This document shows, in pieces, positions 32,103 to 63,584 of a DNA stretch of 64,000 nucleotides (position 1 is the stretch's first letter; every line of letters starts with the position of its first letter). The position numbers and the translations under genes are program-made. The notes under the pieces are model-generated. The model saw only the letters and a list, made by a program, of their open reading frames with translations. It did not search any database and was not told where the DNA came from. The DNA lies in contig JBBAVV010000007.1 in assembly GCA_040397545.1 (NCBI GenBank), positions 33,202-97,201 of the forward strand, given 5' to 3'. Source of the DNA: Pirellulales bacterium. Lineage in GTDB: Bacteria; Planctomycetota; Planctomycetia; Pirellulales; UBA1268.

Positions 32103-32274
32103 GCCTCAATTGTTTCACACTCCGCCGCCGCGGCCAACTCCAGCCTCCCCGGGCCGCGTTCGCCGGAGAAACTCATCCACGGGATGGCGTTCCGGTCGCA
32201 CTTGCGAGCACCATGGCTGGCGAGAGTCTTGTGCCCCTTCGGCCGCCGGTCGCTGTTGCCGGCCGCAAAGACAC

Positions 32275-32976: not shown

Positions 32977-33084
32977 GATAGCCCCGGGGGCCCTGCCTCA
33001 TCTTTTGGTGTCGGTGACACTCACTGCCTACCTCCTTATGGCCGCCGCCCCGCATCCTACCTCAATCCTACCACGCCAACGCAC

Positions 33085-34239: not shown

Positions 34240-34324
34240 GCTTCATCCTCCCAGTTTTACGATGTCGGCAAAACGCTCGCGCGCTTTCATGCCCGCCGTA
34301 TACCCCCCACCGGAACGTAGCCTA

Positions 34325-42889: not shown

Positions 42890-43270
42890 GGGACCGTAGC
42901 TCAACGGTCAGAGCAGGGGACTTGACGGGCACCACCTACACGGATCCTTCCGCAGGGTGAGGCCCCACGGGTTGCCGCCGCTTCGCAGTCACCGCCCACG
43001 GGGGCGCTGCGGTACGGCGGTAGAATCTGCCAAACTCGGGGAACGCTTCGTCGCCATCGGCATCTGCCGGGGGTGACATGCCAATCCCGAGCCAAGCCGT
43101 CGGGGCCGGTGCAAACCGGTTGTGACGGAAGGTGTAGAGGCCAGACGGCAGACGCATCCCGCCGCGAGCGGGGCGAAGGTATGGTCCAGACCACGAACCC
43201 GAAAGGGGCGGCGAAAGCCGAAGTGGGAGGCATAATCCCTTGGTTGCAGGTTCGAATCCTGCCGGTCCTA
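42890..43270 (+). tRNA. tRNA with a CAU anticodon (Ile2/lysidine-type or elongator Met) interrupted by a group I intron; exons 42890..42922 and 43231..43270
   Basis: The joined exons are GGGACCG-TA-GCTC-AACGGTCA-GAGC-A-GGGGA-CUCAUAA-UCCCU-UGGUU-GCAGG-UUCGAAU-CCUGC-CGGUCCU-A. They fold into a full cloverleaf of 73 nt with a G1:U72 wobble and no encoded CCA. The anticodon arm and variable loop closely resemble E. coli ileX as I recall it. Confidence 0.8.
42923..43230 (+). ncRNA. Group I intron (IC3-like, Azoarcus tRNA-Ile type), 308 nt, no ORF
   Basis: The intron follows a U (U33) and ends in G (...GUGGGAGG|CAUAA). It contains ...CCCGAGCCAAGCC... and ...GGAAGGUGUAGAGGCCAGACGGCAGAC..., which match from memory the conserved core of the Azoarcus intron (GAGCCAAGC ... 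GAAGGUGUAGAGACUAGACGGCAC). There are paired candidates for P3 (UCUGCC/GGCAGA), P4 (CUCGGG/CCCGAG) and P6 (GCCGUC/GACGG). GNRA loops are present (GCAA, and GAAA twice). Confidence 0.75.
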
Positions 43271-43320
43271 TTTTTTCTTTCCGTCAGACAGACCGCTCCC
43301 CCGCAGGGGCGGACGCCACG

Positions 43321-43767
43321 ATGACCGACCATGACACCCCGGCCTCCGAGGCTGCACAGCCCGCGAAGCCGACGAACCTGACGTTCGTACAGATTCCTCT
43401 GTCGACCGAGTCGCGCGAGACCGACGAGCGGTCGTTCGTCCTCCGGCCATCGGGGATCGCGGGGGTCGGGGTGTTCGTCACTCATCCGGTCCGGAAGGGG
43501 GCCTACCTCGCCTTGTTCCTCGACGACTCGGTCCGCCGCGTCACCTACGCCGAGATGGAGAAAGACCCTCAACTGAAGGCCTTCTGTCTCGTCTACGGGG
43601 TCGAGCGCGAGGACTACTGCTGTGTACCCCACAGCTTCTCGAAGATGGAGGTGGGGTGGTTCCTCAACCACTCCACCACCCCGAGTGCCGAGCGCCGCGA
43701 TGGCTGGCGCGCCGCCCGCGACATCGAGGCCGGCGAGGAGATCACGATCGACTACCAGGCCTGCTAG
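43321..43767 (+). CDS. SET-domain protein (putative lysine methyltransferase)
   Basis: SGIAGVGVFVTHPVRKGAYL ... GWFLNHSTTPSAE ... AARDIEAGEEITIDYQAC follows the SET pattern. The start is moved to the ATG at 43321 because the ORF head (43240) lies inside the tRNA 3' exon. Confidence 0.75.
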   Translation: MTDHDTPASEAAQPAKPTNLTFVQIPLSTESRETDERSFVLRPSGIAGVGVFVTHPVRKGAYLALFLDDSVRRVTYAEMEKDPQLKAFCLVYGVEREDYCCVPHSFSKMEVGWFLNHSTTPSAERRDGWRAARDIEAGEEITIDYQAC

Positions 43768-43795
43768 CAGGCCCTGCCCCGGGGAAGCAACGGCG

Positions 43796-44182
43796 ATGCT
43801 GCTTGTGAAGACATACCTCGACCGAAGCCCGATCGCCGGGGTCGGGCTGTTCGCCGCCGAGCCGATCCCCGCGGGGACGCTCGTCTGGAAGCTCTCCGAC
43901 GTCGACATCGTGATCCACCAGCGCGACCTCGACGCCCAGGGACTCACCGACCTGCAGCGGGCCTTCTTCGAGTCGCACGCCTACAAGAACGGCAACACCT
44001 ACTACCTCTGCATCGACGATGCCCGGTTCATGAACCACTCGCACGACGCCAACACCCACGAGAACGGGCAAAGCAGCATCGCCAGCCGCCAGATCGAGGC
44101 CGGCCAGGAGATCACCTGCAACTACGGCAACTTCGACGACAGCAAGCGCCATCTCGCGTACTGCAAGCCGAAGGATGCCTGA
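43796..44182 (+). CDS. SET-domain protein, tandem paralogue
   Basis: SPIAGVGLFAAEPIPAGTLVW ... ARFMNHSHDANT ... ASRQIEAGQEITCNYG. The in-frame ATG at 43796 lies 28 nt after the previous stop. Confidence 0.75.
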   Translation: MLLVKTYLDRSPIAGVGLFAAEPIPAGTLVWKLSDVDIVIHQRDLDAQGLTDLQRAFFESHAYKNGNTYYLCIDDARFMNHSHDANTHENGQSSIASRQIEAGQEITCNYGNFDDSKRHLAYCKPKDA

Positions 44183-49187: not shown

Positions 49188-50186
49188 TCACCAATCGGCC
49201 ACGGCCTGACCGTCGGCCGGGTGGCAGACGCTCGCCCAGGTGGCGGGGTTGATGTCCCCCTGCACCGCTCGCACGCTGGCGTCACCGAGGGTCACGTTCA
49301 TTCCGCCGTAATGCGGGGTCTGGGCCCGCGACGAATCACACGCTTTGATCCAGTGCGGCGCCGCCTGGAAGACGGCGCAGGCGGTGTAGCCGGCGGTCGA
49401 TGGCGACTGCATCGTCTCATTGATGCAGAAGACGGGGCGCCAGCGGTTGTTGGAATCGCTCCACAGATTGCCGTTGGTGCTCGAATCGTCGGCATTGCCG
49501 CTCGAGCCGCAAGTGCCGTACCTCTCCGCCAGGAGGACGGTGCTCGTCGTCCCGTCGGGCATCGACTGCGAGATCCGCGAGCTCCCCTGGATGCGGGCCT
49601 CGGGGGTCGCGGCGGTGGGGTTGCCGAAGACGTTGTAGTTGACGGCATAGTTGCCGACGGCCCAATCCTTCGCCCCGCCGCTGGTGGTGGCCCCCAACCC
49701 GCCGGTGCTCGACATCTCCGTCGGGCAGAGGAAAGTCGGGATCGAGACGGCGTAGATCGTGCCCGCCCCGGGGGCTCCGGGGACCGGCGTGTAGACGGTC
49801 CGGTTGGCGAGATCGAAGAGGTTCCCTTGTTCGACGTAGGGGAGCAGCCAGGTGAAGGCGGTGAATCCGGTGGCCCCGCGATAGCCGTTGCCGGCCAGCG
49901 TGGCCAGATCCCGGCTCGACGGGGAGGCGACCGGCGGCAGGCCGCGCTTGGCGTCATTGATCGTATGGCAAGCGATGCCGAGTTGCTTGAGCTGGTTCTT
50001 GCACGACATGCTCCGGGCAGCCTCGCGGGCGGCCTGAACCGCAGGGAGGAGGAGGCCGACGAGGGTGCCGATGATCGCGATCACGACGAGCAATTCGACG
50101 AGCGTGAACGCGCCAGGGAGGCCCAGGGAGGTCCCTCGTAACGACGCGAAACGGCGGGAGCGGGGGGTGGAGGAAGTGAGGCCCAT
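49188..50186 (-). CDS. DUF1559 protein with a prepilin-type N-terminal cleavage/methylation domain
   Basis: [48 protein letters not shown] is the canonical planctomycetal DUF1559 N-terminus. The C-terminal HxxGxNVxxxDGSV-like segment reads [17 protein letters not shown]. Confidence 0.9.
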
Positions 50187-50507
50187 GGTTCGGTGGCTCC
50201 GGGGGGGAGCAGCGGGCCATCAATGGCTGACGGGCCGCCTGACCCGACCGCTGCACCGGAACGCCGACGGCGGCACGGAGCCCCATCAAGGGTCCGGGCC
50301 GCCGTCAGAGGAGCGCTCCAGGTAGGGGCAGCCTATCCGGCCAGCAGGGTCGCCGCCATCCGGCCGGCGCTCAGCAGATTTCATGCCGTGAGTCGGTGCA
50401 AGGACCTTTGGAAAACCCACAAACCAATGCGGAGTCAAGACTTGCGCCGAGGTCCGAAGCCCGTTTCTGGGCCGCCGAGCCGGGCTGAAAAATTGCCTCG
50501 GCCGCGG

Positions 50508-50771
50508 TCAGCGAGGCGACGGCTCCAGCCAAAATCGGGCCGTTCGCGGCGCGGGAACCCCGTAGCGAACTTCGATCGGCAGCCTCCCCTCCCCAGCACC
50601 GGAGGAGATCCCGTCGCCCGGGACCGGCTTCAGGGCGGTCACGGCCACCGGTTCGTCGACCTCCGCCGACTGCCGCACCGCCACCCATCCCAGCACTCCG
50701 CCAAGCACCGCGAGGGGGATGATCGCCCAGCGTGGCCGAGGCCCCCAGAAACCGACCGGATATTGAGACAT
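50508..50771 (-). CDS. Possible small membrane-anchored protein (87 aa)
   Basis: The internal ATG at 50771 gives MSQYPVGFWGPRPRWAIIPLAVLGGVLGWVAV..., with one transmembrane segment. No homology recognised, so the support is weak. Confidence 0.3.
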   Translation of the reverse strand: MSQYPVGFWGPRPRWAIIPLAVLGGVLGWVAVRQSAEVDEPVAVTALKPVPGDGISSGAGEGRLPIEVRYGVPAPRTARFWLEPSPR

Positions 50772-50929
50772 GATACGCCCTGCCCAGGATCGTACGCCCG
50801 CGCCCGACCGGGGAAACCTAGGCCACGGAATGCCACTCGGCAAACGTCCTCCATGACTTGGGGGGAGATCCGGCGCTGGTTCCTCCGGCCCTCCCTGTCT
50901 GGCCGCAGAACCAGAAAAACCTCCCCGGG

Positions 50930-50958
50930 GCGAATGATCCAAAAAAACGGTTTATACT
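50930..50958 (+). promoter_or_regulatory. Candidate promoter GCGAAT-N17-TATACT upstream of the first STAS gene
   Basis: The hexamers lie at 50930..50935 and 50953..50958, 34 nt before the ATG at 50993. The same architecture recurs at 51349..51377. Confidence 0.3.
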
Positions 50959-50992
50959 CTCGACGTCATCCCCCCGCATCAACGGCCTTCCC

Positions 50993-51340
50993 ATGTTCCG
51001 CCACATCGAATCAACCCGCCACGGCACCGTGGATGTCGTGAGGATTCTCGAACGTCGGCTCGTCGACGAGGCCCCGCTTGACGACCTCCGGGAGGAAATC
51101 GGCCAGGTGGTGGGAGCTCACCGGGGGACCCATCTCCTCCTCGACCTCGGCGACGTCGAGTTCCTCTCCAGCGCCATGCTCGACACCCTCTGCCAGTTCT
51201 ACCGGCGGATCCACGCCGCCGGCGGTCAAGTCCGGCTCTGCGGGATGAAGCCCTCGATCGCCGAGGTCTTCCGGACCACCAACCTCGACCGGCTGTTCCC
51301 CATCCACGCCGACGTCGAAGAGGCCCTGACAAACTTCTGA
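50993..51340 (+). CDS. STAS-domain anti-sigma-factor antagonist (SpoIIAA/RsbV family)
   Basis: MFRHIESTRHGTVDVVRILERRLVDE...LLLDLGDVEFLSSAMLDTL...GGQVRLCGMKPSIAEVFRTTNLDRLFPIH. Start taken at the internal ATG at 50993. Confidence 0.8.
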   Translation: MFRHIESTRHGTVDVVRILERRLVDEAPLDDLREEIGQVVGAHRGTHLLLDLGDVEFLSSAMLDTLCQFYRRIHAAGGQVRLCGMKPSIAEVFRTTNLDRLFPIHADVEEALTNF

Positions 51341-51348
51341 CCGCCGCC

Positions 51349-51377
51349 GCGAATCGGCGCCCCGGCCGGGATATAAT
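51349..51377 (+). promoter_or_regulatory. Candidate promoter GCGAAT-N17-TATAAT upstream of the second STAS gene
   Basis: The hexamers lie at 51349..51354 and 51372..51377, 62 nt before the ATG at 51440. Confidence 0.3.
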
Positions 51378-51439
51378 GTCGGCTCCCATCCCATTCCCGT
51401 TTCTTTCCCTTCTTCTCTTCCATCCGAGGTCCATCGTCC

Positions 51440-51796
51440 ATGAGCGACGCCTTTCGCAGAATCGACGTTTCCAAGCAGGAAAAAGCCGAGATCGCCAAGT
51501 TCAAGGACAAGAAGATCCTCGACGAGACCGCCCTCGATGAACTGCGGGTGGAATTGCTGCGGTTGATCAACGACCGGCAGGGGCTGAACCTTCTCCTTGA
51601 CTTCTCCAACGTCGAGTTCATGTCGAGCGCCGTCCTCGGTCTCCTCGGACAGATCCACCGCAAGATGGGGACTCTCAAGGGGAAGCTGAAGATGTGCAGT
51701 ATCCATCCGCAGATCTATGAGGTCTTCAAGCTCACCAACCTCAACAAACTGTTCTCGATCCACAAAGATCAAGCCGAGGCGATGGGGAAGTTCTGA
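51440..51796 (+). CDS. STAS-domain anti-sigma-factor antagonist, second paralogue
   Basis: ...AEIAKFKDKKILDETALDELRVELLRLINDRQGLNLLLDFSNVEFMSSAVLGLL...GKLKMCSIHPQIYEVFKLTNLNKLFSIH. Visibly more A/T-rich than its neighbours. Confidence 0.85.
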   Translation: MSDAFRRIDVSKQEKAEIAKFKDKKILDETALDELRVELLRLINDRQGLNLLLDFSNVEFMSSAVLGLLGQIHRKMGTLKGKLKMCSIHPQIYEVFKLTNLNKLFSIHKDQAEAMGKF

Positions 51797-51899
51797 TCCC
51801 CCGGCCAAGCCGTCCTCCAGGCCGTCAGCCAATCAGCAGGGATTCCCCTCCACCGGCCCCACGACACATCCTCGGGGTCGCTTCTCCTCCCGTGGTGCC

Positions 51900-53336
51900 A
51901 TGAGCGAAACCCCGTCCCCGGGCAGGGCCCCGACTCCCTCCAGCCCGCGCCACCGTGTCGATGTCCTCATGGCCGAGGACAGCCGGATCCAGGCGAAGAT
52001 GCTGGAGAAGCGCCTCGTCGATGCGGGCCACACGGTCCGGTGGGCGATCAACGGCGTCAAAGCGGTCGAGCTCCTCAAGGAAAAGCGCCCCGATCTGATC
52101 ATCTCCGACATCGAGATGCCGGAGATGAACGGCTACGAGTTCTGCAAGATCGCCAAGACCGATCCGTCGTGGCAGACGATTCCGCTGATCCTCCTCTCGT
52201 CGCTCTCCGACCCGGTCGACATCATCCGCGGCCTCGAGGCCGGAGCCGACAACTACGTCACCAAGCCCTACGATCCCAACTACCTCCTCGGGCGCATGGA
52301 TTCGCTCCTCGATACGCCTCTGGAGGCGGAATCGCCGATCCCCGGCAGCGAGATGGAGGTCACGATCGCCGGGCAGAAGTTCAAGGTTCAGGCGGGCCGG
52401 CAGCAGGTGCTCAACCTCCTCGTCTCGATCTTCGAGAACGCGGTGACGAAGAACAAGGAGCTGATCGTCACCAACCAATCGCTCTCCGTGGCGAAGGATT
52501 CGCTCCAGAAAGCGAATTCCGAACTGACGGCCGTCAACGAACAGATCGAACGCAGCAACAAGCGGATGACGCGCGACCTCCACGCCGCCGCGAAGGTGCA
52601 GCAATCGCTGCTGCCGGCCAAGGCGATCGATGTCCCCTCTGCGACGGTCGCCTGGAAGTATGTTCCCTGCAACGAGCTCGCCGGCGACTTCCTCAACGTC
52701 TTCCCGCTCGACGACGAGCATCTGGGGATGTTCGTCGTCGACGTCAGCGGCCACGGCGTGCCGTCGTCGCTCCTGGCGGTGACTGTCGGTGCCTTCCTCA
52801 CCAACCGCGTCTCCGACTCCTCCCTCCTCGTGCGCCCGGGGAAGGACGGCGGGCCGTCGGTGGTGGTGCCGCCGGCCGAGGTCGTGACCCAGCTCAACAA
52901 CCTCTTCCAGGCCGACAACCAGGTCGGCCTCTACTTCACGATCCTCTACGGCGTGCTCCACGTCCCCACCGGGATGCTCCGCTTCACGTCGGGGGGGCAT
53001 CCGCCGCTGCTCCATGTCCCCAAGGAGGGCCCCTTGAAGCTCTTGGAGGTGGAGAGCTTCCCGGTCGGCTTCGTGCCCGACGTCGAGTTCACCGAGGAGG
53101 CGATTCAACTGCAGCCCGGCGATCGCGTCTACTTCTACTCTGACGGCGTGCCGGAGGCGATGGACGAGAAGCTCGACCAGATGGGGAACGAGCGGATGAC
53201 GGCGCTGGTCGAGTCGCTCCGTGGCCAGCCGCTGGAGACGAACGTCACGAAGCTCTTCGAATCGGTCCAGGCCTGGTGCCAGCCGAAGGGCCCGCTCGAC
53301 GACGTCTCGATCCTCGGCGTCGAGTGGAAGGGCTAG
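51900..53336 (+). CDS. Response regulator receiver fused to a PP2C/SpoIIE phosphatase (RsbU-like)
   Basis: REC domain: VLMAEDSRIQAKMLEKRL...DLIISDIEMPEMNGYEF...ADNYVTKPYD. A coiled-coil linker follows. PP2C domain: AAKVQQSLLP...ELAGDFLNVFPLDDEHLGMFVVDVSGHGVPSSLL...LRFTSGGHPPLL...GDRVYFYSDGVPEA...DDVSILGVEW. Start at the ATG at 51900. Confidence 0.85.
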   Translation: MSETPSPGRAPTPSSPRHRVDVLMAEDSRIQAKMLEKRLVDAGHTVRWAINGVKAVELLKEKRPDLIISDIEMPEMNGYEFCKIAKTDPSWQTIPLILLSSLSDPVDIIRGLEAGADNYVTKPYDPNYLLGRMDSLLDTPLEAESPIPGSEMEVTIAGQKFKVQAGRQQVLNLLVSIFENAVTKNKELIVTNQSLSVAKDSLQKANSELTAVNEQIERSNKRMTRDLHAAAKVQQSLLPAKAIDVPSATVAWKYVPCNELAGDFLNVFPLDDEHLGMFVVDVSGHGVPSSLLAVTVGAFLTNRVSDSSLLVRPGKDGGPSVVVPPAEVVTQLNNLFQADNQVGLYFTILYGVLHVPTGMLRFTSGGHPPLLHVPKEGPLKLLEVESFPVGFVPDVEFTEEAIQLQPGDRVYFYSDGVPEAMDEKLDQMGNERMTALVESLRGQPLETNVTKLFESVQAWCQPKGPLDDVSILGVEWKG

Positions 53337-53360
53337 CCCAGGCGGAGTCGGCCCGGGCAC

Positions 53361-55178
53361 TCATCGCCAGTCGATCACCTGGAAGATCCCCCGCCGGCTG
53401 GCGATCCGACCGGGGATTTCGAGGATCCGATCCCGCCACACCGACAGGGCGATCCCGATCAGGAAGATCATCAGGCCACCTACGCCGAGATAGATCCCCA
53501 CGGCGAGCTCCGGACGGTAGACGAGATTCGCAAACAGCGTCAGCAGATAGATCGCCATCCCGCCGACGCCCAAGACCGTGGCGGAGCGGATCCTGGCGAC
53601 GCACCCGACCACGATCAGCGGCAGGAGGGCGGTGACGAGGAGCATCTCGTCGAACAGCACCGGCCGACCACCCGTCCAGCGGTTGCCGAGGACGTTCCAG
53701 AGGGCCGGCCCGGCCGCCACCACGCTTCCTACGACAAGGAGAAAGCCGACTCCCTCGTCACGCTCCCCGGCCCGTTCCCTGACCCGCGCACGGCAGCCGG
53801 CGGCCAGCAGGATCAATCCCGCCGCCGTGGCACCGAGCTTGATAGCCTGGGCCGGTTCCAGATGAAGGAGCCGCACCCAGCCGGCGCCCGTCATCCCCAC
53901 GATCGCGCCAGCGCCGAGGAGGAGGAAACGCCGCTGAGAGGCGTTGGCCGCGACGAACGCGGCCAGTGCGGTCAGGCCAGCGGTCGCCATCGGGAACAGG
54001 CCGACTCCGGCCAGCCCGGTCTCGTCGCCGACCAATCGGAAGACCCCCTGCATGATCGTCGCCATCGCCGCAACGGCCACCATCAGGAGCCCGGCAGTAC
54101 GCCAGGCGCGCCCGACGGTGCGGACGGCAGGGCTGCCGGCGGCGCCGTCACAGGCCCGTCCCGTCGCCATCACCACCAAGCCGGCAGCGGCTGCCAGAGG
54201 GATGAGGAGATCGACCGTGACGAGATCCTCGAGGATCGTGCCGCCGGCGAGGAGGACCGCGGTCGCCGCCAGGCCGGAGAACGCCCCGCGCATCGCCGCG
54301 GGTCGACCGCTTCCCTCGAGGCTCGAGACGATCCAGAGATAGGCCGCGGCCAACCACAGCCCGGCGGCCACCAGCGGCGACGTCGCCACCCGGCTCCCCC
54401 CCAGGGCCCAGCCGGCGACCGTCCAATCGAGCTCGATCCAGGCCACCAATTGCAGCCCGAGGAGCCCGATGGCCGCGGCGAGGAGTTGCACTTGTCCTGC
54501 CAGGAAGAGGGGACGACCGAAGCGACGACGGTCGTAGACCGGGTCATCGATGGCAAAGGCTCGTTCGGCGTGGATCGAGACTGTCGCCAAGCCGAACAGC
54601 GCAAGGCACACCCACGCACTGTCCGTGCCCAACCCCAAGTCGCCCAGAAGGAGTAGGGCGGTGAGCGTCACCCCCACTTCCACAGCCCAGAAAAAGGCCG
54701 GATCACGAAGCACGACCATGGTCGCAGCATAGGCGAGGCAGCAGAGGAGACCGCCGACCCAAAGGTGCCCGTCGACGGTCACGATTCCCTGCCAGTTGAG
54801 ATACCAGAGATTGAGCGGGGCGGCCACGCAAGCGAGGAACGTGATCGCTTGCCCGGCGAGACGGTGACGCGAGCGCAGCGAGACTCCCCAGCCGGTACCG
54901 AACAGGAAGAGCGTCGCGCAGACCAGCGCCAGAGCGACGACGCGCGGGTCCTCGAATACCCCGAGGCTGATGAGCGTGGCGATCAGGCCGAGGATCGACA
55001 GGCATCCACCGGCGACGAGCAACCGTTCGATGGAACGCGGATCGAGGAGCACACGCAGCCAGGCGCCGATGGCCGGCTCGGCCGCCGCATCCCGAGGCTC
55101 GCCCTCGATTTTCCCGGCCTCGTTTGTTGAGGCCTGCCCCAGGGACTGATCTCGGGCCTCGTGGTCTTCGGTCGACAT
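53361..55178 (-). CDS. Large polytopic membrane protein of unknown function (about 605 aa, many TM segments), last gene of the che operon
   Basis: The ATG at 55178 has AGGAGG 8 nt upstream. The acidic N-terminus (MSTEDHEARDQSLGQ...) is followed by a long run of hydrophobic segments. The ORF-track head (55670) would overlap cheR, and the alternative ATG at 55328 has no Shine-Dalgarno site. Confidence 0.6.
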   Translation of the reverse strand: MSTEDHEARDQSLGQASTNEAGKIEGEPRDAAAEPAIGAWLRVLLDPRSIERLLVAGGCLSILGLIATLISLGVFEDPRVVALALVCATLFLFGTGWGVSLRSRHRLAGQAITFLACVAAPLNLWYLNWQGIVTVDGHLWVGGLLCCLAYAATMVVLRDPAFFWAVEVGVTLTALLLLGDLGLGTDSAWVCLALFGLATVSIHAERAFAIDDPVYDRRRFGRPLFLAGQVQLLAAAIGLLGLQLVAWIELDWTVAGWALGGSRVATSPLVAAGLWLAAAYLWIVSSLEGSGRPAAMRGAFSGLAATAVLLAGGTILEDLVTVDLLIPLAAAAGLVVMATGRACDGAAGSPAVRTVGRAWRTAGLLMVAVAAMATIMQGVFRLVGDETGLAGVGLFPMATAGLTALAAFVAANASQRRFLLLGAGAIVGMTGAGWVRLLHLEPAQAIKLGATAAGLILLAAGCRARVRERAGERDEGVGFLLVVGSVVAAGPALWNVLGNRWTGGRPVLFDEMLLVTALLPLIVVGCVARIRSATVLGVGGMAIYLLTLFANLVYRPELAVGIYLGVGGLMIFLIGIALSVWRDRILEIPGRIASRRGIFQVIDWR

Positions 55179-55369
55179 CGGATTGGCCTCCTGGGCCCGC
55201 GGGGAAATTGGATCCAGAGGAAGAGGCGACAACGGCAGGAGGGCGTCACGCGGAAAAACGGACGTGATGGTCCAACCGCTTCGGGCCCGCGTTGCTCCGG
55301 TGGAGATCGTTCCCCCCCCCGTGCTCATCGCCGCGGAAAGGGCTTTCCGCAGCCGAGCCCGGCCGGCCC

Positions 55370-56212
55370 TCAAGAGCGCTTCGGAGCGGGGCTGATCCGC
55401 GGCCGGTAGACGCTGCAGCCGACCCCCTCGACGCGGTCGTAGGTGTCGCAGACGCCGAGCATCGTCTCGGCGCCGCCGAGGAACAGTGCTCCGTCGGGGC
55501 GGACGGTCGATCGCATCTTCGCCAGGATCGCGGCGCGGGTCGGGACGTCGAAATAGATGAGGATGTTCCGCAGGAACACCAGGTCGCACGGCGGCACCCC
55601 CTGCCAGGCCTCGAGGAGATTCATCCTCCGGAACTCGACATACCTCCGGCAGTCGTGCCCGATGCTCCACTTCCCCTGGAGCCGGACGAAGTACTTGTCC
55701 CGCAGCTCCACCGGCAGGCCGCGGGTGACCTCGAGATCGCTGTAAAGCCCCTCTCGGGCCCGGGCCAACACCGGCTCGGAGATGTCGGTGGCGAGAATCC
55801 GCACCGACCAGCCGGCAAGCGCCTCGCGGAAGTGCTCGTTCAAGAGTATCGCCAGGCTGTAGGCCTCCTGCCCCGACGACGCGGCCGCCGACCAGACGAC
55901 CAGATGCCTGGCGACAGCGCGACGTTTGAGGAGGTCGGGAAGCAGCCGCTTCACCGTCTCGAACGGCGATCGATCGCGGAAGAACGACGTCTCGTGCGTC
56001 ATCATCGCATTGAGGACGTCCTGCTCGAGCCCGGGATCACGGGCGCTGCGGACGCGCTCGACGAGGCCCTCGAAATCGAGGAGGCCCCGTTGCCGCAGCA
56101 CCGGCAGGAGCCGGGCCTCGACGAGGTAGGCCTTCGATGCGTCGATGACCACGCCGCTGCGCCGCTTGAGAAAGGTCGCCAGGAAGGCGAGCTGCTGGGG
56201 ATTGACCTTCAA
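55370..56212 (-). CDS. cheR: Chemotaxis protein methyltransferase CheR
   Basis: ...FFRDRSPFETVKRLLPDL...LVVWSAAASSGQEAYSLAILLNE...VRILATDISEPVLARAREGLY...DLVFLRNILIYFD.... The start is uncertain. I propose the TTG at 56212 (MKVNPQQLAFL..., with AGGA upstream) because the ORF-track N-terminus overlaps cheB and is junk-like. Confidence 0.8.
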   Translation of the reverse strand: MKVNPQQLAFLATFLKRRSGVVIDASKAYLVEARLLPVLRQRGLLDFEGLVERVRSARDPGLEQDVLNAMMTHETSFFRDRSPFETVKRLLPDLLKRRAVARHLVVWSAAASSGQEAYSLAILLNEHFREALAGWSVRILATDISEPVLARAREGLYSDLEVTRGLPVELRDKYFVRLQGKWSIGHDCRRYVEFRRMNLLEAWQGVPPCDLVFLRNILIYFDVPTRAAILAKMRSTVRPDGALFLGGAETMLGVCDTYDRVEGVGCSVYRPRISPAPKRS

Positions 56213-56255
56213 GGGAGCCGTCCTGTCTGGGATACACCCGACCGTGGAGCAAAGG

Positions 56256-57710
56256 TCAGCCGCGCCGTCGCAACCGCATCCCCACCTCGACGCCGAGCTG
56301 CCGGATGGGGAGGACCGCCTCGGCCAGGCCCGCCCGGGCAACATGCCCAGGCATCCCCCAGACGACGCTCGTGATCTCGTCCTGGGCGAGGATCGTGCCG
56401 CCGGCGGCGTGGATCGCCTCGCTCCCCTTGAGGCCGTCCTTCCCCATCCCGGTGAGGACGACGGCGAGCGTCGCCCCCCCCCACACCGCCGCAGCGCTGC
56501 GGAAGAGAACGTCGGCCGCCGGCCGACAGGCATTTTCGGGGGGGCCGTCGTCGATCTGCACGATCACCTTCGTCCCTCTGCGGACCACCTTGAGATGCCG
56601 GCCGCCGGGGGCGAGGAGGATGTCGCCGGCGCCGAGCTGATGGCCGTCGAGCGCTTCCCGGACCGGCAGGCCGCAGACCTTCGTGAGTTGCTCGGCGAGG
56701 TGGGCGGTGAACACGGCCGGCATGTGCTGGACGATGAGCACCGGCACCCCGGCCGTTTTCACGAACGCGGGGAGGAATTCCGACAGCGCCACCGGCCCGC
56801 CGGTCGACACTCCCACGACCACCACCGCGACAGGGTCGGCACGGGTCCGGGGCGTGGCCCTGGGTTGGAGGGGAGCGGCGCCGCCCCCCGGTGCCGACAC
56901 CTGCCGGCGGAACTGTTTCAGCTTGGGGATCACGTCCTCGCGGATCCGTGCCGCCACCTCCTCGCTGCTGGCCCCCTTCGGCTTGGCGACGTAATCGTTG
57001 GCGCCGGCAACGAGGGCATCGAGCGCCACCTTCGCGCCGCGCTCGGTGAGTGTCGAGAACATCACGACCGGCAAGCGGGGGTAAACACGACGGAGCTCGC
57101 GGAGCATCGTCAGCCCGTCCATGACCGGCATCTCGACGTCGAGGAGGACGACATCGGGGCAGGATTCGGCGACACGGGCGAGCCCCTGGACCCCGTCGGC
57201 CGCAGTCCCCGTCACGCGCAGCTCCGGATCGGCGGAGAGCGTCGTCGAGACGATGCCACGGATCGCCGCCGAATCATCGACGACGAGAATCCGCAACGGC
57301 GCGTGGCCGGGAGCGGCACCGGGGCGGGGAACAGTTCGGGCGCCGACGGCGGCGATGGCCTCGCCGATCGCTGCCGGAGTGAAAGGCTTGGCGACGAAGA
57401 CACCGGCCCCCGCCCGGATCGCCCGGTCGACCACCTCCGGGGCCCTGTCGGACGACATCGCCACGATCGGCAAGCTTTTCCACAGGGCCTGGCCACGGAT
57501 CCGCTCGATGAGGGCAAACCCGTCCATGAGGGGCATGTGGAGATTGACCGTTACCACGTCCGGCCGGCCGCTGCTGGCGAGGATCGCCAGCGCCTCCTCG
57601 CCGTCGGCCGCCTGCTCGCACGCGTACCCGAGGTCGACGAGCATCTTCGCGAGGATGCTCCGCACCGGCTTGGAATCATCGACGATCAGGGCACGCATGG
57701 AATCAGCCAT
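56256..57710 (-). CDS. cheB: REC-REC-CheB: protein-glutamate methylesterase carrying an extra N-terminal CheY-like receiver
   Basis: REC1: MRALIVDDSKPVRSILAKML...VTVNLHMPLMDGFALIERIR...VFVAKPF. REC2: LRILVVDDSAAIRGIVSTTL...VVLLDVEMPVMDGLTMLREL...NDYVAKP. Methylesterase: VVVVGVSTGGPVAL...LIVQHMPAVFT...AVVLTGMGKDG...GGTILAQDE. Confidence 0.85.
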   Translation of the reverse strand: MADSMRALIVDDSKPVRSILAKMLVDLGYACEQAADGEEALAILASSGRPDVVTVNLHMPLMDGFALIERIRGQALWKSLPIVAMSSDRAPEVVDRAIRAGAGVFVAKPFTPAAIGEAIAAVGARTVPRPGAAPGHAPLRILVVDDSAAIRGIVSTTLSADPELRVTGTAADGVQGLARVAESCPDVVLLDVEMPVMDGLTMLRELRRVYPRLPVVMFSTLTERGAKVALDALVAGANDYVAKPKGASSEEVAARIREDVIPKLKQFRRQVSAPGGGAAPLQPRATPRTRADPVAVVVVGVSTGGPVALSEFLPAFVKTAGVPVLIVQHMPAVFTAHLAEQLTKVCGLPVREALDGHQLGAGDILLAPGGRHLKVVRRGTKVIVQIDDGPPENACRPAADVLFRSAAAVWGGATLAVVLTGMGKDGLKGSEAIHAAGGTILAQDEITSVVWGMPGHVARAGLAEAVLPIRQLGVEVGMRLRRRG

Positions 57711-57746
57711 CGGATCAGCGTGGACCGGGGCCCCACGGCCCCGGCG

Positions 57747-59903
57747 TCACTTCTGGTATTCCTCCACGAGCCGCTGCAGGTTCTGGGCCATCCGCGCCAG
57801 TTCCTGGCTCGAGAGCTGGGCGTTGCTCGCCCCCTCGGCGGTATTCTGCGCCGCCTGCGCCACCTGGCCGATGTTCTGGGCGATCTCCGTCGAGCCGATC
57901 GTCGCCTCGCCGATGTTGCGGCTGATCTCGCTGGTGGTGACGCTCTGCTCCTCGACCGCGGCGGCGATCTTCGTCTGCAGCCCGTCGATCTTCTCGATCA
58001 CTGCCACGATCTCACCGATCGCATTGACAGCCTTGGAGGTGTCAGCCTGCATCGCCTCGATCTTCGACCCGATATCCTCGGTGGCCTTGGCGGTCTCGCG
58101 CGCGAGGTCCTTGACCTCGTTGGCGACGACGGCGAAGCCCTTTCCCGCCTCGCCGGCCCGCGCCGCCTCGATCGTGGCATTGAGGGCGAGGAGGTTCGTC
58201 TGCTCGGCGATCGAGGTGATCACCTTCACCACCTGGCCGATCTCCGCGCTCGACGTCCCGAGCTTGTCCATCGTCTTTGACGTCGCCCGCGCCATGTCGA
58301 CCGACTGCCGGGCGACGCCGGCGGCATCCTGGGCGGAGCGGGCAATCTCGTAGATGCTCTGGACGAGGTTCTCGACCGAGCCCGACACCGTCTTCGTGTT
58401 GGCGCTGACCTCCTCGGCGGCCGCAGAGACGAGGTTTGCCTGAGCGGTCGTCTCCTCCGCCGCAGCGCTCATCTGCTGGCTGACGCTCGTCAACTCCTCG
58501 GAGGCGCTGGCGAGGGTGTGGGTGTTGTCCTTGATGCCGTCGACGAGCTTCACCTGGCGGCGCGCTGACCGACTGAACGACGATGCGATTCGCGCCGAGA
58601 GGAGGGCCACGCCGAGTGTCGTCAGGCCGAAGATCCAGCCGGCGAAGCGTTTCAGGGTATCGACCGGGGCCGACACCTCCGCCTGATCGATGTCCGACAC
58701 GATCGCCCACCTCACCGCGTCGTTGCCCGGGCCGTCGGCCGGGTGGACGAGCGCCGGCCCCCAGGAGGAGAGGACCGGCTGCTTGCGGTAATCGATGGCC
58801 GGGCCGGTGCCGCTGCCACCATTCTTGAAGACATCCTCAACCGGCGCGGTGTCGACTTTGTACTTCGTGTTACAGATCGTCGTCTTCACGCCGAGTCGCT
58901 CGAGAAACCGGGAATCGGTGCGGAACAGCTTGTCGGGCCCGATGGCGTAGGTCTCGCCAGTGGCGCCCAGTCCGACGGTCTCGCCGACGACCGTGTTGAT
59001 CCGGTCGAGCGGCAGCTGAAAGGCGAGCACGCCAACCACCTTCCGGCCGTCGAGGATCGGCGCCGCGATGAACCCAGCGGGCTTTTCGTAGGAGGGGAGA
59101 TAGGGGCCGAAAACACTGAAATAGACGACATCCCCGCGCCCGGCGCCGGCTGCCTGGCGGAACACCTTCCCGAGAGCCGTCTCGGCGAAGGCGCCGTTCT
59201 TGAGCGACGTGGCGAAGTCGATCTCCTTGAAAACGGTGTAGACGATCTCGCCGCTTTCGGCATCGATGAGGAAGATGTCGTAGAGCCCGTAGCTCCGCAG
59301 CACCTTACGGAGCCTCGGGTGATGCAGGGCATGGGCCCGACTGTAGGCCGAGGCATCCGTCGCGGCGTCGAGGAGATCCTTCGATCCGGTCGGGTTCGCA
59401 TTGCGCACCAGATAAAGATCCTGGAGCCAGGTCGAAGCGTCGCCGAGAACGGCCGTCAGCCCCTCGGTCTTGATCTCTTTGTCGTTTTCCGCCTTGTAGC
59501 GCGGGGCGAACTCATTGCCATACCACGCGTTGAGATCGCGCCGGGCCTGGAACTGCTCCGGCTCGGTCACGGCGCCGTCCTGGAGGACGGTGCGGAAGCC
59601 CTCGCGGAAATCGGCAAGCGCTTCGCGGGTGGAGGGATCGTCGGCGAGCACGCGGAGATGGTCGTGGAGCCCCGCGAAGTAGCGTTCCACCTGTTTGACG
59701 GTGATCTCGCGGACGACCGTGAGCTTCCCCCGCGCCTCCACATCGAGCGCCTGCGAGGCGCTGCGGTAGGTGGCATAGCCCATCAGGGCCAGGGGCACCA
59801 GCGACACCAGCAGGAGCGCGAGGAGGAGGGGATTGGTGGCGAATGCCACCAGCTCCCGGAGCCACCCGCGCCGGTCATTCCGCACGTCTGCCTGCACGCT
59901 CAT
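57747..59903 (-). CDS. Methyl-accepting chemotaxis protein with a periplasmic double-Cache-like sensor
   Basis: The ATG at 59903 overlaps the cheW stop (ATGA). A transmembrane segment is followed by the sensor (…[30 protein letters not shown]…[24 protein letters not shown]…), a second transmembrane segment, and the MA signalling domain (…[37 protein letters not shown]…). Confidence 0.85.
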
Positions 59904-60391
59904 CGGATCTTCCTTTCCACGGTCGGTTCCACCAATCCTGCCAGAATCGCCTCGATCCCGAGCAGGTGCACGAGCCCGTCTCGGGCGGCAACCACCCCCT
60001 CGATGCACTCTCCCAGGCTCCCCTCCGCCCCGACCCTCGACGTCTCGATCGATGCCACGGGGATGTCGACGACGTCGGTGAGGGCGTCAACGATGAGGCT
60101 GTGCGTCTCGCCGCCGGCCGTCAGCACGACATGGATCCCCTCGTCGGCGATCGGCTCGAACCCCATCCGGCGGCGGAGGTCGATCGCCGGCACGATCCGG
60201 CCACGGAGGTTGAGGAGCCCGCGGATCGCCGTCGGCCCCCGCGGCACCGGTGTTGTCACCGTCCCGCGAAACACCTCCTGCACGGCGCTGGCATCGACCG
60301 CGAAGGCCCGGCCGGCGACGACGAACGTGCAGAAGCGGCGCGTCTGGGGCGGCTGCTTTCCGGGGTCGATCATCTCCGCGGCGCGCGTCAT
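59900..60391 (-). CDS. cheW: Chemotaxis coupling protein CheW
   Basis: [22 protein letters not shown]...[22 protein letters not shown]. The ATG at 60391 overlaps the cheA stop (ATGA). Confidence 0.85.
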
Positions 60392-62841
60392 GCGGTCACC
60401 CCGGGGGTGGCCGTGGTGGGAGGGGCGCCGGGGAGGGCGTGCCGGACATCGATCACCTCGGTGGCCCGACCGGCCACGGCGATCGTGCCGAGCACGCCAC
60501 GGGCACACAGACCATGGTTGATCGGCGCCTCGGGAGTGACCACCTCGAGGATCCGGCGGACGCGGAGGGCCACCTCGCCGAGCGTCGCCGCAAGGATCAC
60601 GGCGGTCACCGCCGGCGAGTCGACCGGTTGCGGCGTACCGGCGAGGACGGCGTCGATATCGGTGATCGCCGTCAGCCTCCCTTCCCGATGGACCACCATG
60701 TGCCCGGCCGCGAGCTGGAGCCGCTCGCGTGGAAACGTCTCGAGCCGGGCGACCTCCTCCAGCGGCACGGCAACAACGCGCCCCGCCGGAGATTCGCAGA
60801 CGAGGTAGCGCTCGAGTGGGGCTGCGTCGGCGGCGGTCGCCTCCACCGCACGATCCGACGCGGGGCGGGGGGGCACCTTCGCGGCTTGGGCGATGCCGCG
60901 CGGGTCGAGGATCAGCACCACCGCGCCATCGCCGCGGACCGTGGCGCCGGCATAGAGCCCAAGGGCCACGAGCACCGCCACGATCGGCTTGACGACGATG
61001 TCCTCGCTGACGGTGACGCCGTCGACGACGAGGCCGTATTCGACCTCGTCACTCCGCAGAACCACGACCGTGCCCCGCGGCGGCTGGCCAGGGGCGGCCG
61101 CGGCCTCGAGGCCGAGGAGCTCCCCGAGGAACACCAGCGGCAGAAGTCGGCCGCGGAGACGCATCACCGGCGCCCCCTCGAGCCCCTCGACCGACACCGC
61201 CGCGCCATTCGTGCCGGCGCGGAGCGCGATCAGCTCGCGGACGGCCGCCTGGGGGATCGCGAACCGGTGGCTGCCGGAGGAGACGATTAACGCCGGGATG
61301 ATCGCCAGGGTGAGCGGGATCCGCACCCGGACGGTGGTGCCCGTGCCGGGGACGCTCCCGATGTCGACCGCCCCGCCGATCGCCTCGATGTTGGTCCGCA
61401 CGACGTCCATGCCGACGCCACGCCCCGACACATCGGTGACCTTGGCGGCGGTCGAGAACCCCGGCTCGAAGATGTATTGGAGGACGCGTTCATCGGGGAG
61501 GAGCGCGGCCTGTTCGGTACTGATCAGCCCCTTGGCAACCGCCTTCTTCCGCACCGCATCGACAGGGATCCCGCCGCCGTCGTCACGGATCTCGACCATC
61601 ACCTGACCACTCTCGTGGTAGGCCCGCAGCGTCAGCCGGCCGGCCGCCGGCTTTCCCCGGGCCACGCGCACTTCAGGGGGCTCGATGCCATGGTCGACGG
61701 CGTTGCGGACGAGGTGCGTGAGCGGGTCGCGGATCGTCTCGATGAGCGAACGATCAAGCTCGGTGTCGGCTCCGTCGATCTCGAGCGTCACCTCCTTCCC
61801 GCAGGTCACGGCGAGATCGCGGACGATCCGCGGAAACTTGCTGAACACGTGCTCGATCGGCTGCATCCGCGTCTTCATCGCCGCCGCCTGGAGCGACGCG
61901 GTGACCGTGTCGATGCGGTGCACGACCTTGAGGAGCTCGGGGTGATCGTCCCCCCGGGCGGCCGTCGTGTGGCGAACGGTCGACTCGAGCTGGTTGCGGG
62001 CAAGAACGAGCTCGCCGACGAGCTCGACGAGCGTCCCCAGGAGGCCGACGTCGACCCGGATCGATTGCTCGGCCACCGCAGACCGCCTGGTTTGCGGCGC
62101 GGCCGGCGGCTGGGCCGGGATGGGCAACGGGGCGGCGGTGACCGCATCAGGCACGACGACCCGAGTCGTCGAGAGAGGCACTGTGTCAGCCTCCACCTCG
62201 GCGGTCATCGTGAGCGCTGGCACGATGGCAGGCGCGATCGGCGCGGCTGGCGACTCGGGCGTCTCCGCGATGACACGCTCCGCTGCCGCGACGGGCGTCT
62301 CGATCTTCGCGGGCGCCGCGGTTGGAGTGGGCTCCGGGTCGGCCGGCAGACGCTCCTCGATCGGGGCGGGGGGCGGAGGGGCCGGTGGTGCTGCCGGGGT
62401 GGACGGCGGCGTCAGGCGGGTGACGACGACGACGCCGTCCTCCCGACGCTTGGCGGCCTCGAAGGCAACCCGGTCGAGCGACTGGGAGAGATCGTGGAAA
62501 TCGCTCTCCCCCTCTCCGCCGGTCTTCTCGATTCGCTCGAGGATCGAGCGGACGGCGTCGACGAGCGTAAGGAGGACGCCGGTGACGTCGTTGTCGAGAT
62601 CGATCTTTCCGTCCCGCAATTGGCCGAGCAGATGCTCGCCGCTATGCGTGATCGCCCCGAGCTTGGCGAAACCGAAGAATCCCGACGTCCCCTTGATCGT
62701 GTGGACGGTGCGAAAGATGCTCGCCAGCCGCTGGGAATCGCGCGGGTTCTCCTCGAGGGCGACGAGGTCCTGGTCGAGTTGGTCGAGATTCTCGGCCGAC
62801 TCGACGAGGAACTCCCGCACGAATTCTTCGTTGTCGTTCAT
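60388..62841 (-). CDS. cheA: Chemotaxis histidine kinase CheA: Hpt, a long Pro/Ala-rich linker, dimerisation and HATPase domains, and two CheW-like domains
   Basis: Hpt: FRTVHTIKGTSGFFG. An approximately 130-aa P/A/T-rich linker follows. Kinase: HLVRNAVDHGIE...DDGGGI...GRGVGMDVV. After the kinase come two successive CheW-like segments. Start at the ATG at 62841 (MNDNEEFVREFL, with GAAGG upstream). Confidence 0.9.
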   Translation of the reverse strand: MNDNEEFVREFLVESAENLDQLDQDLVALEENPRDSQRLASIFRTVHTIKGTSGFFGFAKLGAITHSGEHLLGQLRDGKIDLDNDVTGVLLTLVDAVRSILERIEKTGGEGESDFHDLSQSLDRVAFEAAKRREDGVVVVTRLTPPSTPAAPPAPPPPAPIEERLPADPEPTPTAAPAKIETPVAAAERVIAETPESPAAPIAPAIVPALTMTAEVEADTVPLSTTRVVVPDAVTAAPLPIPAQPPAAPQTRRSAVAEQSIRVDVGLLGTLVELVGELVLARNQLESTVRHTTAARGDDHPELLKVVHRIDTVTASLQAAAMKTRMQPIEHVFSKFPRIVRDLAVTCGKEVTLEIDGADTELDRSLIETIRDPLTHLVRNAVDHGIEPPEVRVARGKPAAGRLTLRAYHESGQVMVEIRDDGGGIPVDAVRKKAVAKGLISTEQAALLPDERVLQYIFEPGFSTAAKVTDVSGRGVGMDVVRTNIEAIGGAVDIGSVPGTGTTVRVRIPLTLAIIPALIVSSGSHRFAIPQAAVRELIALRAGTNGAAVSVEGLEGAPVMRLRGRLLPLVFLGELLGLEAAAAPGQPPRGTVVVLRSDEVEYGLVVDGVTVSEDIVVKPIVAVLVALGLYAGATVRGDGAVVLILDPRGIAQAAKVPPRPASDRAVEATAADAAPLERYLVCESPAGRVVAVPLEEVARLETFPRERLQLAAGHMVVHREGRLTAITDIDAVLAGTPQPVDSPAVTAVILAATLGEVALRVRRILEVVTPEAPINHGLCARGVLGTIAVAGRATEVIDVRHALPGAPPTTATPGVTA

Positions 62842-62963
62842 GGACCCACCTTCCCGGTGGGGGACCGACGGCACGCCCATCCCCACTCAGATACCATACA
62901 CAGGAGTTTCGGCGGAATGGCCTGCCCGCCGTTTCTCCCCTGACGGTCGCGACGCTCGTACCG

Positions 62964-63584
62964 ATGGCAACGGTTTCCCGCAGGCTCCCGCGGCATCTCC
63001 GCCCACCCATGCCCAGCCTGCCCGCCCCGCTCCGCCACGCCCTCTGCCTCCGTTGCCCCCGGTGCGGGGCCGGCCGCCTGTTCGCCGGGTGGTTCCGGAT
63101 GGAGCCCCGCTGTTCGGCCTGCAGCCTCGATTTCCGCCGCGAACCGGGCTTCTACCTCGGGTCGATCTACATCAATTACGGCGTCACGGCCCTGACGACG
63201 ATCGCCCTCTATGGCTTCCTCGTCCTCGGCGCCGGCTGCTCGGCGGAGCTGGCCCTGGCCGCCTGTCTGGCCGTGTCAGTGACCCTGCCGATGTGGCTCT
63301 TCCACTATGCCCGGGCCTTCCTCCTGGCGATCGACAGCTCCGTCAACAGCGAGCCTTCGTCGGCTCCGGGGGACAGCGGCGCGGGCCTCACCGACGCCCA
63401 ACTCTCCTCCCACCGCACCAATGACGGCCAGGCGGGGTGTGCGATGGGGATCGCGCTGACCCTCGTCCTCGTCTTCGCCCTCCTCATGGCCGCGGTCACG
63501 CTCTGGTTCGTGATCGGCCCCGGTTCACGGGGGGGAGGCTGGGACGACGGCGGGCTTGATGGAGGAGCCGGGGTGATCGGGTAA
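62964..63584 (+). CDS. DUF983-like zinc-ribbon membrane protein
   Basis: CLRCPRCGAGRLFAGWFRMEPRCSACSLDF is a four-Cys ribbon, followed by transmembrane segments. The start could instead be the in-frame ATG at 63009. Confidence 0.6.
   Translation: MATVSRRLPRHLRPPMPSLPAPLRHALCLRCPRCGAGRLFAGWFRMEPRCSACSLDFRREPGFYLGSIYINYGVTALTTIALYGFLVLGAGCSAELALAACLAVSVTLPMWLFHYARAFLLAIDSSVNSEPSSAPGDSGAGLTDAQLSSHRTNDGQAGCAMGIALTLVLVFALLMAAVTLWFVIGPGSRGGGWDDGGLDGGAGVIG

Follow-up and report, generated by a model that had tools for sequence, protein, structure and literature searches.

A conserved planctomycete chemosensory gene cluster with a CheY-CheB fusion and a candidate REC-PP2C/STAS output

To which protein does a chemosensory kinase pass its signal when its operon holds no gene for a stand-alone CheY? 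The question is raised by a chemosensory (che) operon of a freshwater Pirellulales bacterium (contig JBBAVV010000007.1), located in the 64-kb stretch of DNA that we analysed, here called the window, whose first letter is position 1 for all coordinates given below. The operon lies on the minus strand and faces, tail-to-tail, a plus-strand set of genes for two STAS proteins and for a serine phosphatase that carries a receiver domain (REC-PP2C). Together they form a genuine and conserved signalling unit, a chemosensory system that most likely has REC-PP2C and STAS as its output. The concept of such an output is known, but the fusion of a CheY domain, with asparagine at its acceptor site, to CheB is unreported, as our literature search found no description of a CheY-CheB fusion without the acceptor aspartate. 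What the sensor controls is most likely a phosphorylation switch and not swimming.

Pfam confirms the minus-strand order given in a preliminary description of this DNA, cheA-cheW-(dCache)mcp-(REC-REC-cheB)-cheR, and places STAS-STAS-(REC-PP2C) opposite to it on the plus strand. Both ATGA overlaps claimed there can be read directly from the sequence, at 60391..60388 between cheA and cheW and at 59903..59900 between cheW and mcp, and so can the convergent gap of 24 nucleotides (nt) between the stop codon of REC-PP2C and that of a membrane-protein gene that follows cheR. Of the gaps described as tight, those between mcp and cheB (36 nt) and between cheB and cheR (43 nt) are so, whereas the one between cheR and the membrane-protein gene is not clearly tight; it measures 191 nt with the start chosen by gene callers (55178) and shrinks to about 41 nt only with an upstream ATG (55328). 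Independent gene calls on near-identical lake-metagenome contigs gave the same gene set with the same lengths (817, 163, 718, 480/484, 280, 605, 478/455, 118 and 115 residues, from cheA through STAS).

Searches with a receiver profile found no receivers in the window outside the CheB fusion and the PP2C protein, so that the latter is, as had been stated, the only other receiver. Also in line with the preliminary description, Pfam searches with all sizeable genes of the window detected no flagellar or pilus genes, and neither did they detect genes for sigma factors or for HATPase_c_2 (RsbW-like) proteins. Within the cluster, Pfam found no cheD, no GGDEF domain and no receiver on CheA. A scan of positions 50100-63400 for promoters and terminators returned no promoter-like sites, and terminator-like sites only at the level of shuffled sequence; in a host this high in GC, such a scan carries little information.

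A lack of conserved linkage in related genomes had been named in the preliminary description as a refuting result, but the linkage is present when approached from either side. On the che side, we searched GTDB, with a single genome for each species, for the CheB fusion and obtained 80 loci (designated by L numbers below), which were annotated with profiles built from the window proteins. Fused REC-REC-CheB occurs in 19 of the 80, all of them metagenome-assembled genomes (MAGs) of Planctomycetota. Where a fused locus was informative, that is, extended at least 1.5 kb beyond cheR, REC-PP2C adjoins cheR in 14 of 15 cases, usually together with STAS, and the fifteenth has a flank of only 2 kb. REC-PP2C is also present in L013, a short contig, and in L033, which was scored as unfused and whose cheB is cut by the contig end. 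None of the 55 informative loci with unfused cheY and cheB contains a PP2C gene; these span Acidobacteriota, Verrucomicrobiota, Actinomycetota and also Planctomycetota (L022, L023, L025, L052, L066, L074).

The phosphatase side gives the same picture. The REC-PP2C protein has hundreds of close relatives, and two that we inspected (73% and 64% identity) show STAS and REC-PP2C converging on cheR-cheB-mcp-cheW-cheA, with entirely different outer neighbours. A metagenome scan anchored on REC-PP2C yielded 33 loci with orthologues, whose identities range from 50 to 94%, and the matches beyond them fall abruptly to 26%. Che genes are linked to 24 of these, 7 lie on contigs that are too short, and 2 are exceptions, which amounts to 24 of 26 informative loci. 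The adjacency holds across Planctomycetia, where CheB identities span 43-94% and those of PP2C 50-94%, and the outer flanks vary. It takes several forms: in L021, L107 and L109 cheR and REC-PP2C share a strand, with REC-PP2C behind cheR at a junction of −9 to +9 nt, and in a sister group, whose identity is 50-55%, REC-PP2C comes directly after cheB (L110, L111, L114-L117). The sister group (L110-L117) has retained a CheY with the acceptor aspartate. The linkage outlasts insertions, namely the membrane-protein gene in the window and in L007 and 3.8 kb in L088, and REC-PP2C genes of the sample that are only remotely related lie next to che genes as well (L120, L141). The synteny counts from both sides rule out chance adjacency, and a functional coupling of the che and STAS/REC-PP2C sets is close to certain.

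The adjacency might nevertheless carry no signalling meaning, if a gene order was simply inherited within one clade and an unrelated histidine kinase serves REC-PP2C. The fused loci do all come from one class, so the association represents one origin and long retention, not many independent events; most of them are convergent, so that the two gene sets are not co-transcribed there; and PP2C orthologues exist without che neighbours in reach, in L100 (10 kb on each side) and in L113 (10 kb upstream and 3.4 kb downstream). Against this stands the persistence of the adjacency while the outer flanks all change, its survival through the insertions just mentioned, through inversion (L021, L107, L109) and through a different che layout (among L110-L117), and the che linkage of the more distant REC-PP2C genes. 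Inherited order without meaning is thus disfavoured by synteny, and we regard it as very improbable.

If the coupling is functional, what has become of CheY? The answer lies in the fusion protein (56256..57710, minus strand; 484 residues, or 480 from an alternative start), in which Pfam recognizes two Response_reg domains and a CheB_methylest domain and which matches an NCBIfam CheB subfamily with 417 bits. Its first receiver, REC1 (57345..57698, minus strand), is derived from CheY: its top PDB matches are CheY chains, aligned from end to end, and it retains D11, D12, S86 and K108. Yet Asn56 (AAT, 57543-57545) stands at the position of the acceptor, Asp57 of CheY, and faces the acceptor aspartate in the alignments with the CheY chains. 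The operon had been called CheY-less, and this is correct for stand-alone genes within the window, but the N-terminal receiver of CheB is itself CheY-like.

The asparagine is not peculiar to this genome. It is present in all 18 sequences of our alignment and in about 92% of homologues, and the signature DDNSK was found in 25 of 26 and 15 of 17 sequences of two locus sets. The exceptions have aspartate in L095 (8848-10320, DLVTIDWHMP) and L099 (6952-8457, DLVTVDLHMP) and threonine in one genome locus. Mean pairwise identity is 59% in REC1 and 33% in the adjacent linker, which indicates that REC1 is under constraint and is a retained pseudo-receiver, not a decaying remnant. The second receiver, REC2 (56961..57299, minus strand), is CheB's own; it has a canonical acceptor, Asp191 (GAC, 57138-57140), and its signature DDDSK is complete in both locus sets (26/26 and 17/17). 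The methylesterase domain (56292..56822, minus strand; CheB_methylest 196.6 bits) has the motifs STGGP, QHMP and GMG.DG, which are invariant in 18 homologues and would contain a candidate Ser-His-Asp triad.

Comparison with the unfused relatives suggests how the fusion arose. In these, a stand-alone cheY lies immediately upstream of cheB, the same position that REC1 holds in the fused type, and its product has the acceptor aspartate in 33 of 33 cases and the full DDDTK signature in 32 of 33. An ancestral cheY, still separate upstream of cheB in the related operons of other phyla, thus appears to have become fused to CheB and to have exchanged its acceptor aspartate for asparagine. As judged from its residues, REC1 would usually be unable to take phosphate at the canonical site and would hence provide no canonical phospho-CheY output; its probable role is in docking or regulation. 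The loss of its acceptor strengthens the case for REC-PP2C as the output receiver, since REC2 of CheB and the receiver of REC-PP2C are then the only canonical acceptors in the conserved cluster.

One could still suppose that the system runs flagellar swimming through a CheY encoded elsewhere, with the receiver of REC-PP2C acting as a phosphate sink or side branch. Receivers that act as phosphate sinks do occur in other Che systems, and distant cheY and flagellar genes may lie beyond our single 64-kb view of the genome. In addition, two CheW domains on CheA, as found here, characterize class F5, and this class governs flagella in the species studied (PMC10782961). But the cheY of the operon was fused and lost its acceptor rather than being kept, the window has no motility genes, and many MAGs of freshwater Planctomycetacia are reported to be without flagellar genes (PMC6461901). 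A sink, moreover, needs neither invariant PP2C aspartate motifs nor a conserved linker nor a STAS partner with a serine, all of which are seen in the phosphatase module. We therefore hold control of swimming to be decidedly unlikely.

REC-PP2C itself (51900..53336, plus strand) consists of a Response_reg and a SpoIIE-type phosphatase domain (129.4 bits) and ends right after the latter, with no kinase domain in Pfam searches or alignments. The acceptor aspartate of its receiver (GAC, 52107-52109) is conserved in 22 of 22 and 33 of 33 sequences of two sets, and the signature EDDSK in 22 of 22 and 31 of 33. In a 12-sequence alignment of the phosphatase domain, the aspartates of AGDF, VDVSGHG, YSDG and DDV are invariant; the aspartates of these motifs are metal ligands in PP2C phosphatases. 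The helical linker between receiver and phosphatase (52330-52590, residues ~145-230; QQVLNLLVS.FENAV.KN.EL...) is almost invariant in homologues of 54-77% identity and surpasses parts of the catalytic domain in conservation; it may thus work as a coiled-coil or dimerisation switch.

The receiver of REC-PP2C resembles the CheYs of che operons (50-77 bits) more than CheB receivers (29-34 bits), and unrelated receivers are also less alike. The metagenome scan, which started from this receiver, returned after the orthologues mostly che-linked receivers (L121-L127, L132-L161), but the peptide patterns I[IV]SDIEMP and GADNYVTK served as its seed, and this outcome is therefore only suggestive as evidence that CheA is the cognate kinase. 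Wsp-like clusters are among the nearest non-orthologous receivers (L121-L127).

Directly upstream lies the conserved partner of REC-PP2C, STAS2 (51440..51796, plus strand), a single-domain protein that is found in most che-linked loci; it is recognized by Pfam and, with 52.3 bits just below the cut-off of 53.45, by the NCBIfam ant_ant_sig family. STAS1 (50993..51340, plus strand) also matches STAS in Pfam and ant_ant_sig in NCBIfam (60.3 bits). Apart from the window and its near-identical contigs, two STAS genes occur only in the closest relatives (L007, L008, L087), and the other che-linked loci have one. We aligned these proteins to reference sequences that included SpoIIAA, in which Ser58 is phosphorylated. 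All che-linked STAS proteins conserve the aligned serine, which makes Ser63 of STAS2 (codon starting at 51626) and Ser60 of STAS1 (codon starting at 51170) the candidate phosphorylation sites. In L007 and L008 the conserved serine is preceded by alanine (FLASAML). The window thus has a PP2C phosphatase with intact aspartate motifs and single-domain STAS proteins with a predicted phosphorylatable serine, two of the components of a partner switch.

For the remaining components we ran phmmer, with the HATPase_c_2 protein of L113 and a SpoIIAB sequence as seeds, against all open reading frames (ORFs) of the loci. The matches were the ORF of the L113 seed itself, a SpoIIAB-like ORF in L120 and two weak ones in the unfused loci L073 and L076. 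Together, Pfam and phmmer detected no STAS kinase, anti-sigma factor or sigma factor within the 64 kb, nor within 10 kb to either side in the che-linked planctomycete loci. The STAS kinase and the target may be encoded elsewhere.

Other arrangements of these components were seen in single loci. The che-less REC-PP2C orthologue of L113 lies beside genes for a STAS protein and for a PP2C fused to HATPase_c_2; between them they make up a full partner-switch set (9968-13213). In L120 the SpoIIAB-like ORF follows a che-linked REC-PP2C, and in L114 (921-4953) an operon of the sister type continues after REC-PP2C with a fusion of STAS to Sel1 repeats and then with a REC-Ser/Thr kinase (Pkinase). Such an arrangement would place one STAS protein between a kinase and a phosphatase that are both under receiver control.

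These data point to the following pathway. The dCache chemoreceptor would sense a periplasmic ligand and steer CheA via CheW, and phosphate from the histidine of the CheA Hpt domain would pass to the two canonical receivers. One is REC2 of CheB, which together with CheR would provide methylation-based adaptation; the second belongs to the neighbouring REC-PP2C. Phosphorylation of the latter would alter the activity of the phosphatase, probably by activating it, as in HsbR; RsbY and CrsR are further analogues for such activation. The phosphatase would then dephosphorylate the conserved serine of the co-encoded STAS, and unphosphorylated STAS would bind a partner whose gene lies elsewhere, be it an RsbW-like kinase/anti-sigma factor or a different effector. 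By this route receptor occupancy would become a slower, switch-like cellular response. Gene content, linkage from both sides, the pattern of acceptor sites, the STAS serine and the PP2C aspartate motifs are observations, whereas the phosphotransfer from CheA to REC-PP2C, STAS as substrate, the sign of the regulation and the downstream target are inferred.

Since conserved linkage fits either direction of signalling, the STAS/REC-PP2C module could also act on the Che system, for example by STAS binding the array or CheA and tuning its signalling, with REC-PP2C under feedback from CheA or under another kinase. An action of a REC-PP2C-kinase on a chemoreceptor via STAS has been proposed from gene neighbourhoods of Campylobacterota (PMC9239204), and the lack of a downstream kinase or sigma gene in our cluster would suit such a role. 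However, a full CheB/CheR pair for adaptation is already there, the receiver of the phosphatase is CheY-like, and the CheY output is disabled precisely in the lineage with REC-PP2C, so that feedback on the array would leave the pathway without any output. We consider this direction unlikely.

We thus favour a chemosensory pathway of Planctomycetia that serves not motility but a Ser/Thr-phosphatase switch, and regard it, including the phosphotransfer from CheA to REC-PP2C and the direction of signalling, as probable, though by no means compelling. Several points weigh against it. Adjacency cannot give the direction of signalling. With no gene for a kinase, anti-sigma or sigma factor nearby, a complete partner switch is not demonstrated. 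A CheY may be encoded elsewhere in the genome. The three REC1 domains without asparagine mean that loss of the acceptor is not obligatory and that the Asp/Asn state is not absolutely fixed. To these we add the two che-less orthologues, the convergent layout and the single origin described above. A more far-reaching claim is that the cluster represents a distinct chemosensory class in Planctomycetia, in which the CheY output was replaced outright, the fused CheY domain took on a docking or regulatory role after its change to asparagine, CheA signals only to CheB and REC-PP2C, and STAS dephosphorylation is the sole output of a receptor array with methylation adaptation; we advance it tentatively, leaning slightly towards doubt.

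The sensor and kinase core is that of a regular Che system. CheA (60388..62841, minus strand; 817 residues) comprises Hpt, H-kinase_dim, HATPase_c and CheW (P5) domains, followed at the C-terminus by a second CheW-like domain (27.4 bits, cut-off 23.5). Its Hpt domain contains His47 (codon starting at 62703) in the motif HTIKG. Pfam detected no P2 domain in its Pro/Ala-rich linker. CheW (59900..60391, minus strand; Pfam E-value 2.6e-25) starts within the overlap with the cheA stop codon, and the transmembrane chemoreceptor (57747..59903, minus strand; MCPsignal 119 bits) within that with the cheW stop codon. CheA with these domains, CheW and the receptor are all above the Pfam cut-offs, as expected of a Che system.

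The sensor domain of the receptor is predicted to be periplasmic and dCache-like, in accordance with a weak match to dCache_1 (36.7 bits, under the cut-off of 45) and with dCache_1 being on record for homologues. A scan for hydrophobic segments found one clear N-terminal segment; a second transmembrane segment, under the threshold of the scan, may lie at about residues 430-445, as placed by eye. The receptor has no HAMP domain, and counting from its tip glutamate (residue 585), 133 residues from the C-terminus, we obtain a hairpin of about 38 heptads. CheR (55370..56212, minus strand; Pfam CheR, 171.5 bits, and CheR_N) has 280 residues, a length also obtained by an independent gene call, and starts with TTG at 56212, 43 nt past the cheB stop codon. 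It completes the CheR/CheB pair for methylation adaptation, in which the candidate catalytic motifs of CheB are invariant in 18 homologues.

Between cheR and REC-PP2C lies the gene for a polytopic membrane protein (53361..55178, or to 55328, minus strand, with the start taken from gene calls), with 605 residues, about 14 hydrophobic segments and no match in Pfam or NCBIfam. The preliminary description had counted it as a member of the operon. Besides the window and the near-identical contigs, a homologue is found only in L007 (10638-12647); it is absent from all other loci, including L008 with 94% CheB identity. Only in this lineage do cheR and REC-PP2C have the gene between them. We therefore reject it as a component of the system and consider it a lineage-specific insert.

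The window as a whole has about 67% GC and carries PSCyt1/PSCyt2/PSD1, DUF1501 and DUF1559 genes, which marks it as planctomycete DNA. Two giant ORFs probably encode huge secreted or surface proteins: one of at least 4686 residues (3-14060, minus strand), which runs past the window start, with fibronectin-III repeats, M8/M10-like metalloprotease motifs, PPC and beta-helix segments, and one of 3262 residues (15650-25438, plus strand) with DUF5649 repeats only. At 32001-34000 the GC content dips to 0.60 from about 0.67-0.70 elsewhere. This dip covers an ORF of 595 residues without Pfam match (32533-34320, plus strand), followed by a PIN-domain gene (34700-35059, plus strand), and may mark a foreign or mobile insert. 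A SET-domain gene (43100-44182, plus strand) is called as two tandem SET genes of 148 and 128 residues on the near-identical contigs, which is unusual for bacteria.

Genomes often encode Che systems whose output is not motility, yet only a few of these outputs are known. The suspected link to partner switching has so far come mostly from gammaproteobacterial gene neighbourhoods, where a retained CheY blurs which receiver is the real target of CheA. The planctomycete variant does away with this ambiguity, and three purified receivers would suffice to put the question to a direct test. Its evolution took an uncommon course as well, since a response regulator was joined to another protein, disabled and yet maintained by selection. 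For abundant freshwater Planctomycetes, many of which reportedly have no flagella, the cluster opens a way to study how they sense their environment. If the CheY output was replaced outright, this would be the cleanest natural case of a chemoreceptor wired to a partner switch.

How does this cluster compare with known systems? The preliminary description had proposed a Che-to-partner-switch model as new. Conserved linkage and the asparagine in the CheY-derived REC1 support the model in part, but the membrane gene is no part of it and its novelty was overstated, although our literature search found no earlier description of this Planctomycetes arrangement. Ancestral (stage 1/2) F7 clusters of gammaproteobacteria already contain anti-sigma antagonists and a serine phosphatase (PMC7184735), and che1 of Shewanella oneidensis has CrsR (REC-PP2C-kinase) and CrsA (STAS), which control RpoS (PMC9855816, PMC6482189). 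The link between Che1 and RpoS is given there only as a possibility, and phosphotransfer from CheA to CrsR is not reported (PMC7184735, PMC9855816, PMC6482189). STAS genes also appear in the che gene orders of Campylobacterota (PMC9239204).

The window thus resembles F7, found in Shewanella (che1), Vibrio cholerae and Pseudomonas aeruginosa, in linking che genes to STAS and a receiver-bearing serine phosphatase, a combination thought to serve stress response and not motility (PMC7184735, PMC9855816, PMC6482189). However, F7 clusters keep a stand-alone cheY, cheD and Aer2-type PAS-HAMP receptors (PMC7184735), none of which was found in the window. The window has instead a CheY domain fused to CheB with asparagine, a dCache-type receptor and a CheA with two CheW domains. 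Furthermore, CrsR continues into a kinase/anti-sigma domain, its third, which binds RpoS, whereas the REC-PP2C of the window stops after the phosphatase.

The downstream half of the proposed pathway has counterparts in other phosphorelays. The RsbK/RsbY/RsbM system of Bacillus cereus is kindred, in that a relay from RsbK to RsbY leads to a REC-PP2C and STAS (PMC4574943). In the HptB-HsbR-HsbA system of Pseudomonas aeruginosa, an Hpt protein or kinase likewise acts on a REC-PP2C, which sets the phosphorylation state of a STAS protein and thereby partner switching (PMC6482189). The input of both systems is a hybrid sensor kinase, in contrast to the receptor-CheW-CheA array with methylation adaptation in the window. 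HsbR, unlike the REC-PP2C of the window, also has a kinase domain, and partners of HsbA are known (FlgM, HsbD, control of RpoS). The same REC-PP2C architecture is found in RssB of the Pseudomonas type (PDB 3eq2/3f7a), with 3eq2 as the closest solved structure (E-value 4.7e-36 over linker and PP2C). RssB is also the top NCBIfam match (NF045505), but the score of 138.5 bits against a cut-off of 700 makes our protein a distant relative, not an orthologue; moreover, RssB is not che-linked.

Multidomain output regulators encoded at the che cluster have precedents as well. The Wsp system, in which a CheA with a receiver acts on WspR (REC-GGDEF), has a Che core with CheB and CheR, no motility CheY and a multidomain regulator as output. 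The same holds for Che3 of Myxococcus, which signals to CrdA (PMC3147164). The outputs of Wsp and Che3 are, however, c-di-GMP synthesis or transcription and not Ser/Thr dephosphorylation, and neither is known to have a CheY-CheB fusion. Wsp differs further in its gene order and in the receiver of its CheA; the window has no CheA receiver and no GGDEF domain.

In its upstream half, the cluster resembles class F5, as in Che1 of Azospirillum, Caulobacter and Che1 of Rhodospirillum centenum. The duplicated CheW domain, present in 99% of F5 CheAs (PMC10782961), is found here, together with a receptor of about 38 heptads, and the order cheA-cheW-(mcp)-cheY-cheB-cheR of F5 systems is shared by the related unfused operons. 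In studied F5 systems, flagella are controlled via CheY, and CheA usually ends in a receiver, e.g. in Azospirillum and Azorhizobium (PMC10782961), which the CheA of the window does not. Duplicated CheW and HAMP-less receptor point to a core akin to F5 whose CheA has lost its receiver and whose output has changed. Judged from these indirect cues, the cluster looks like an F5 relative in which CheY has been disabled and fused to CheB and a PP2C output has been added.

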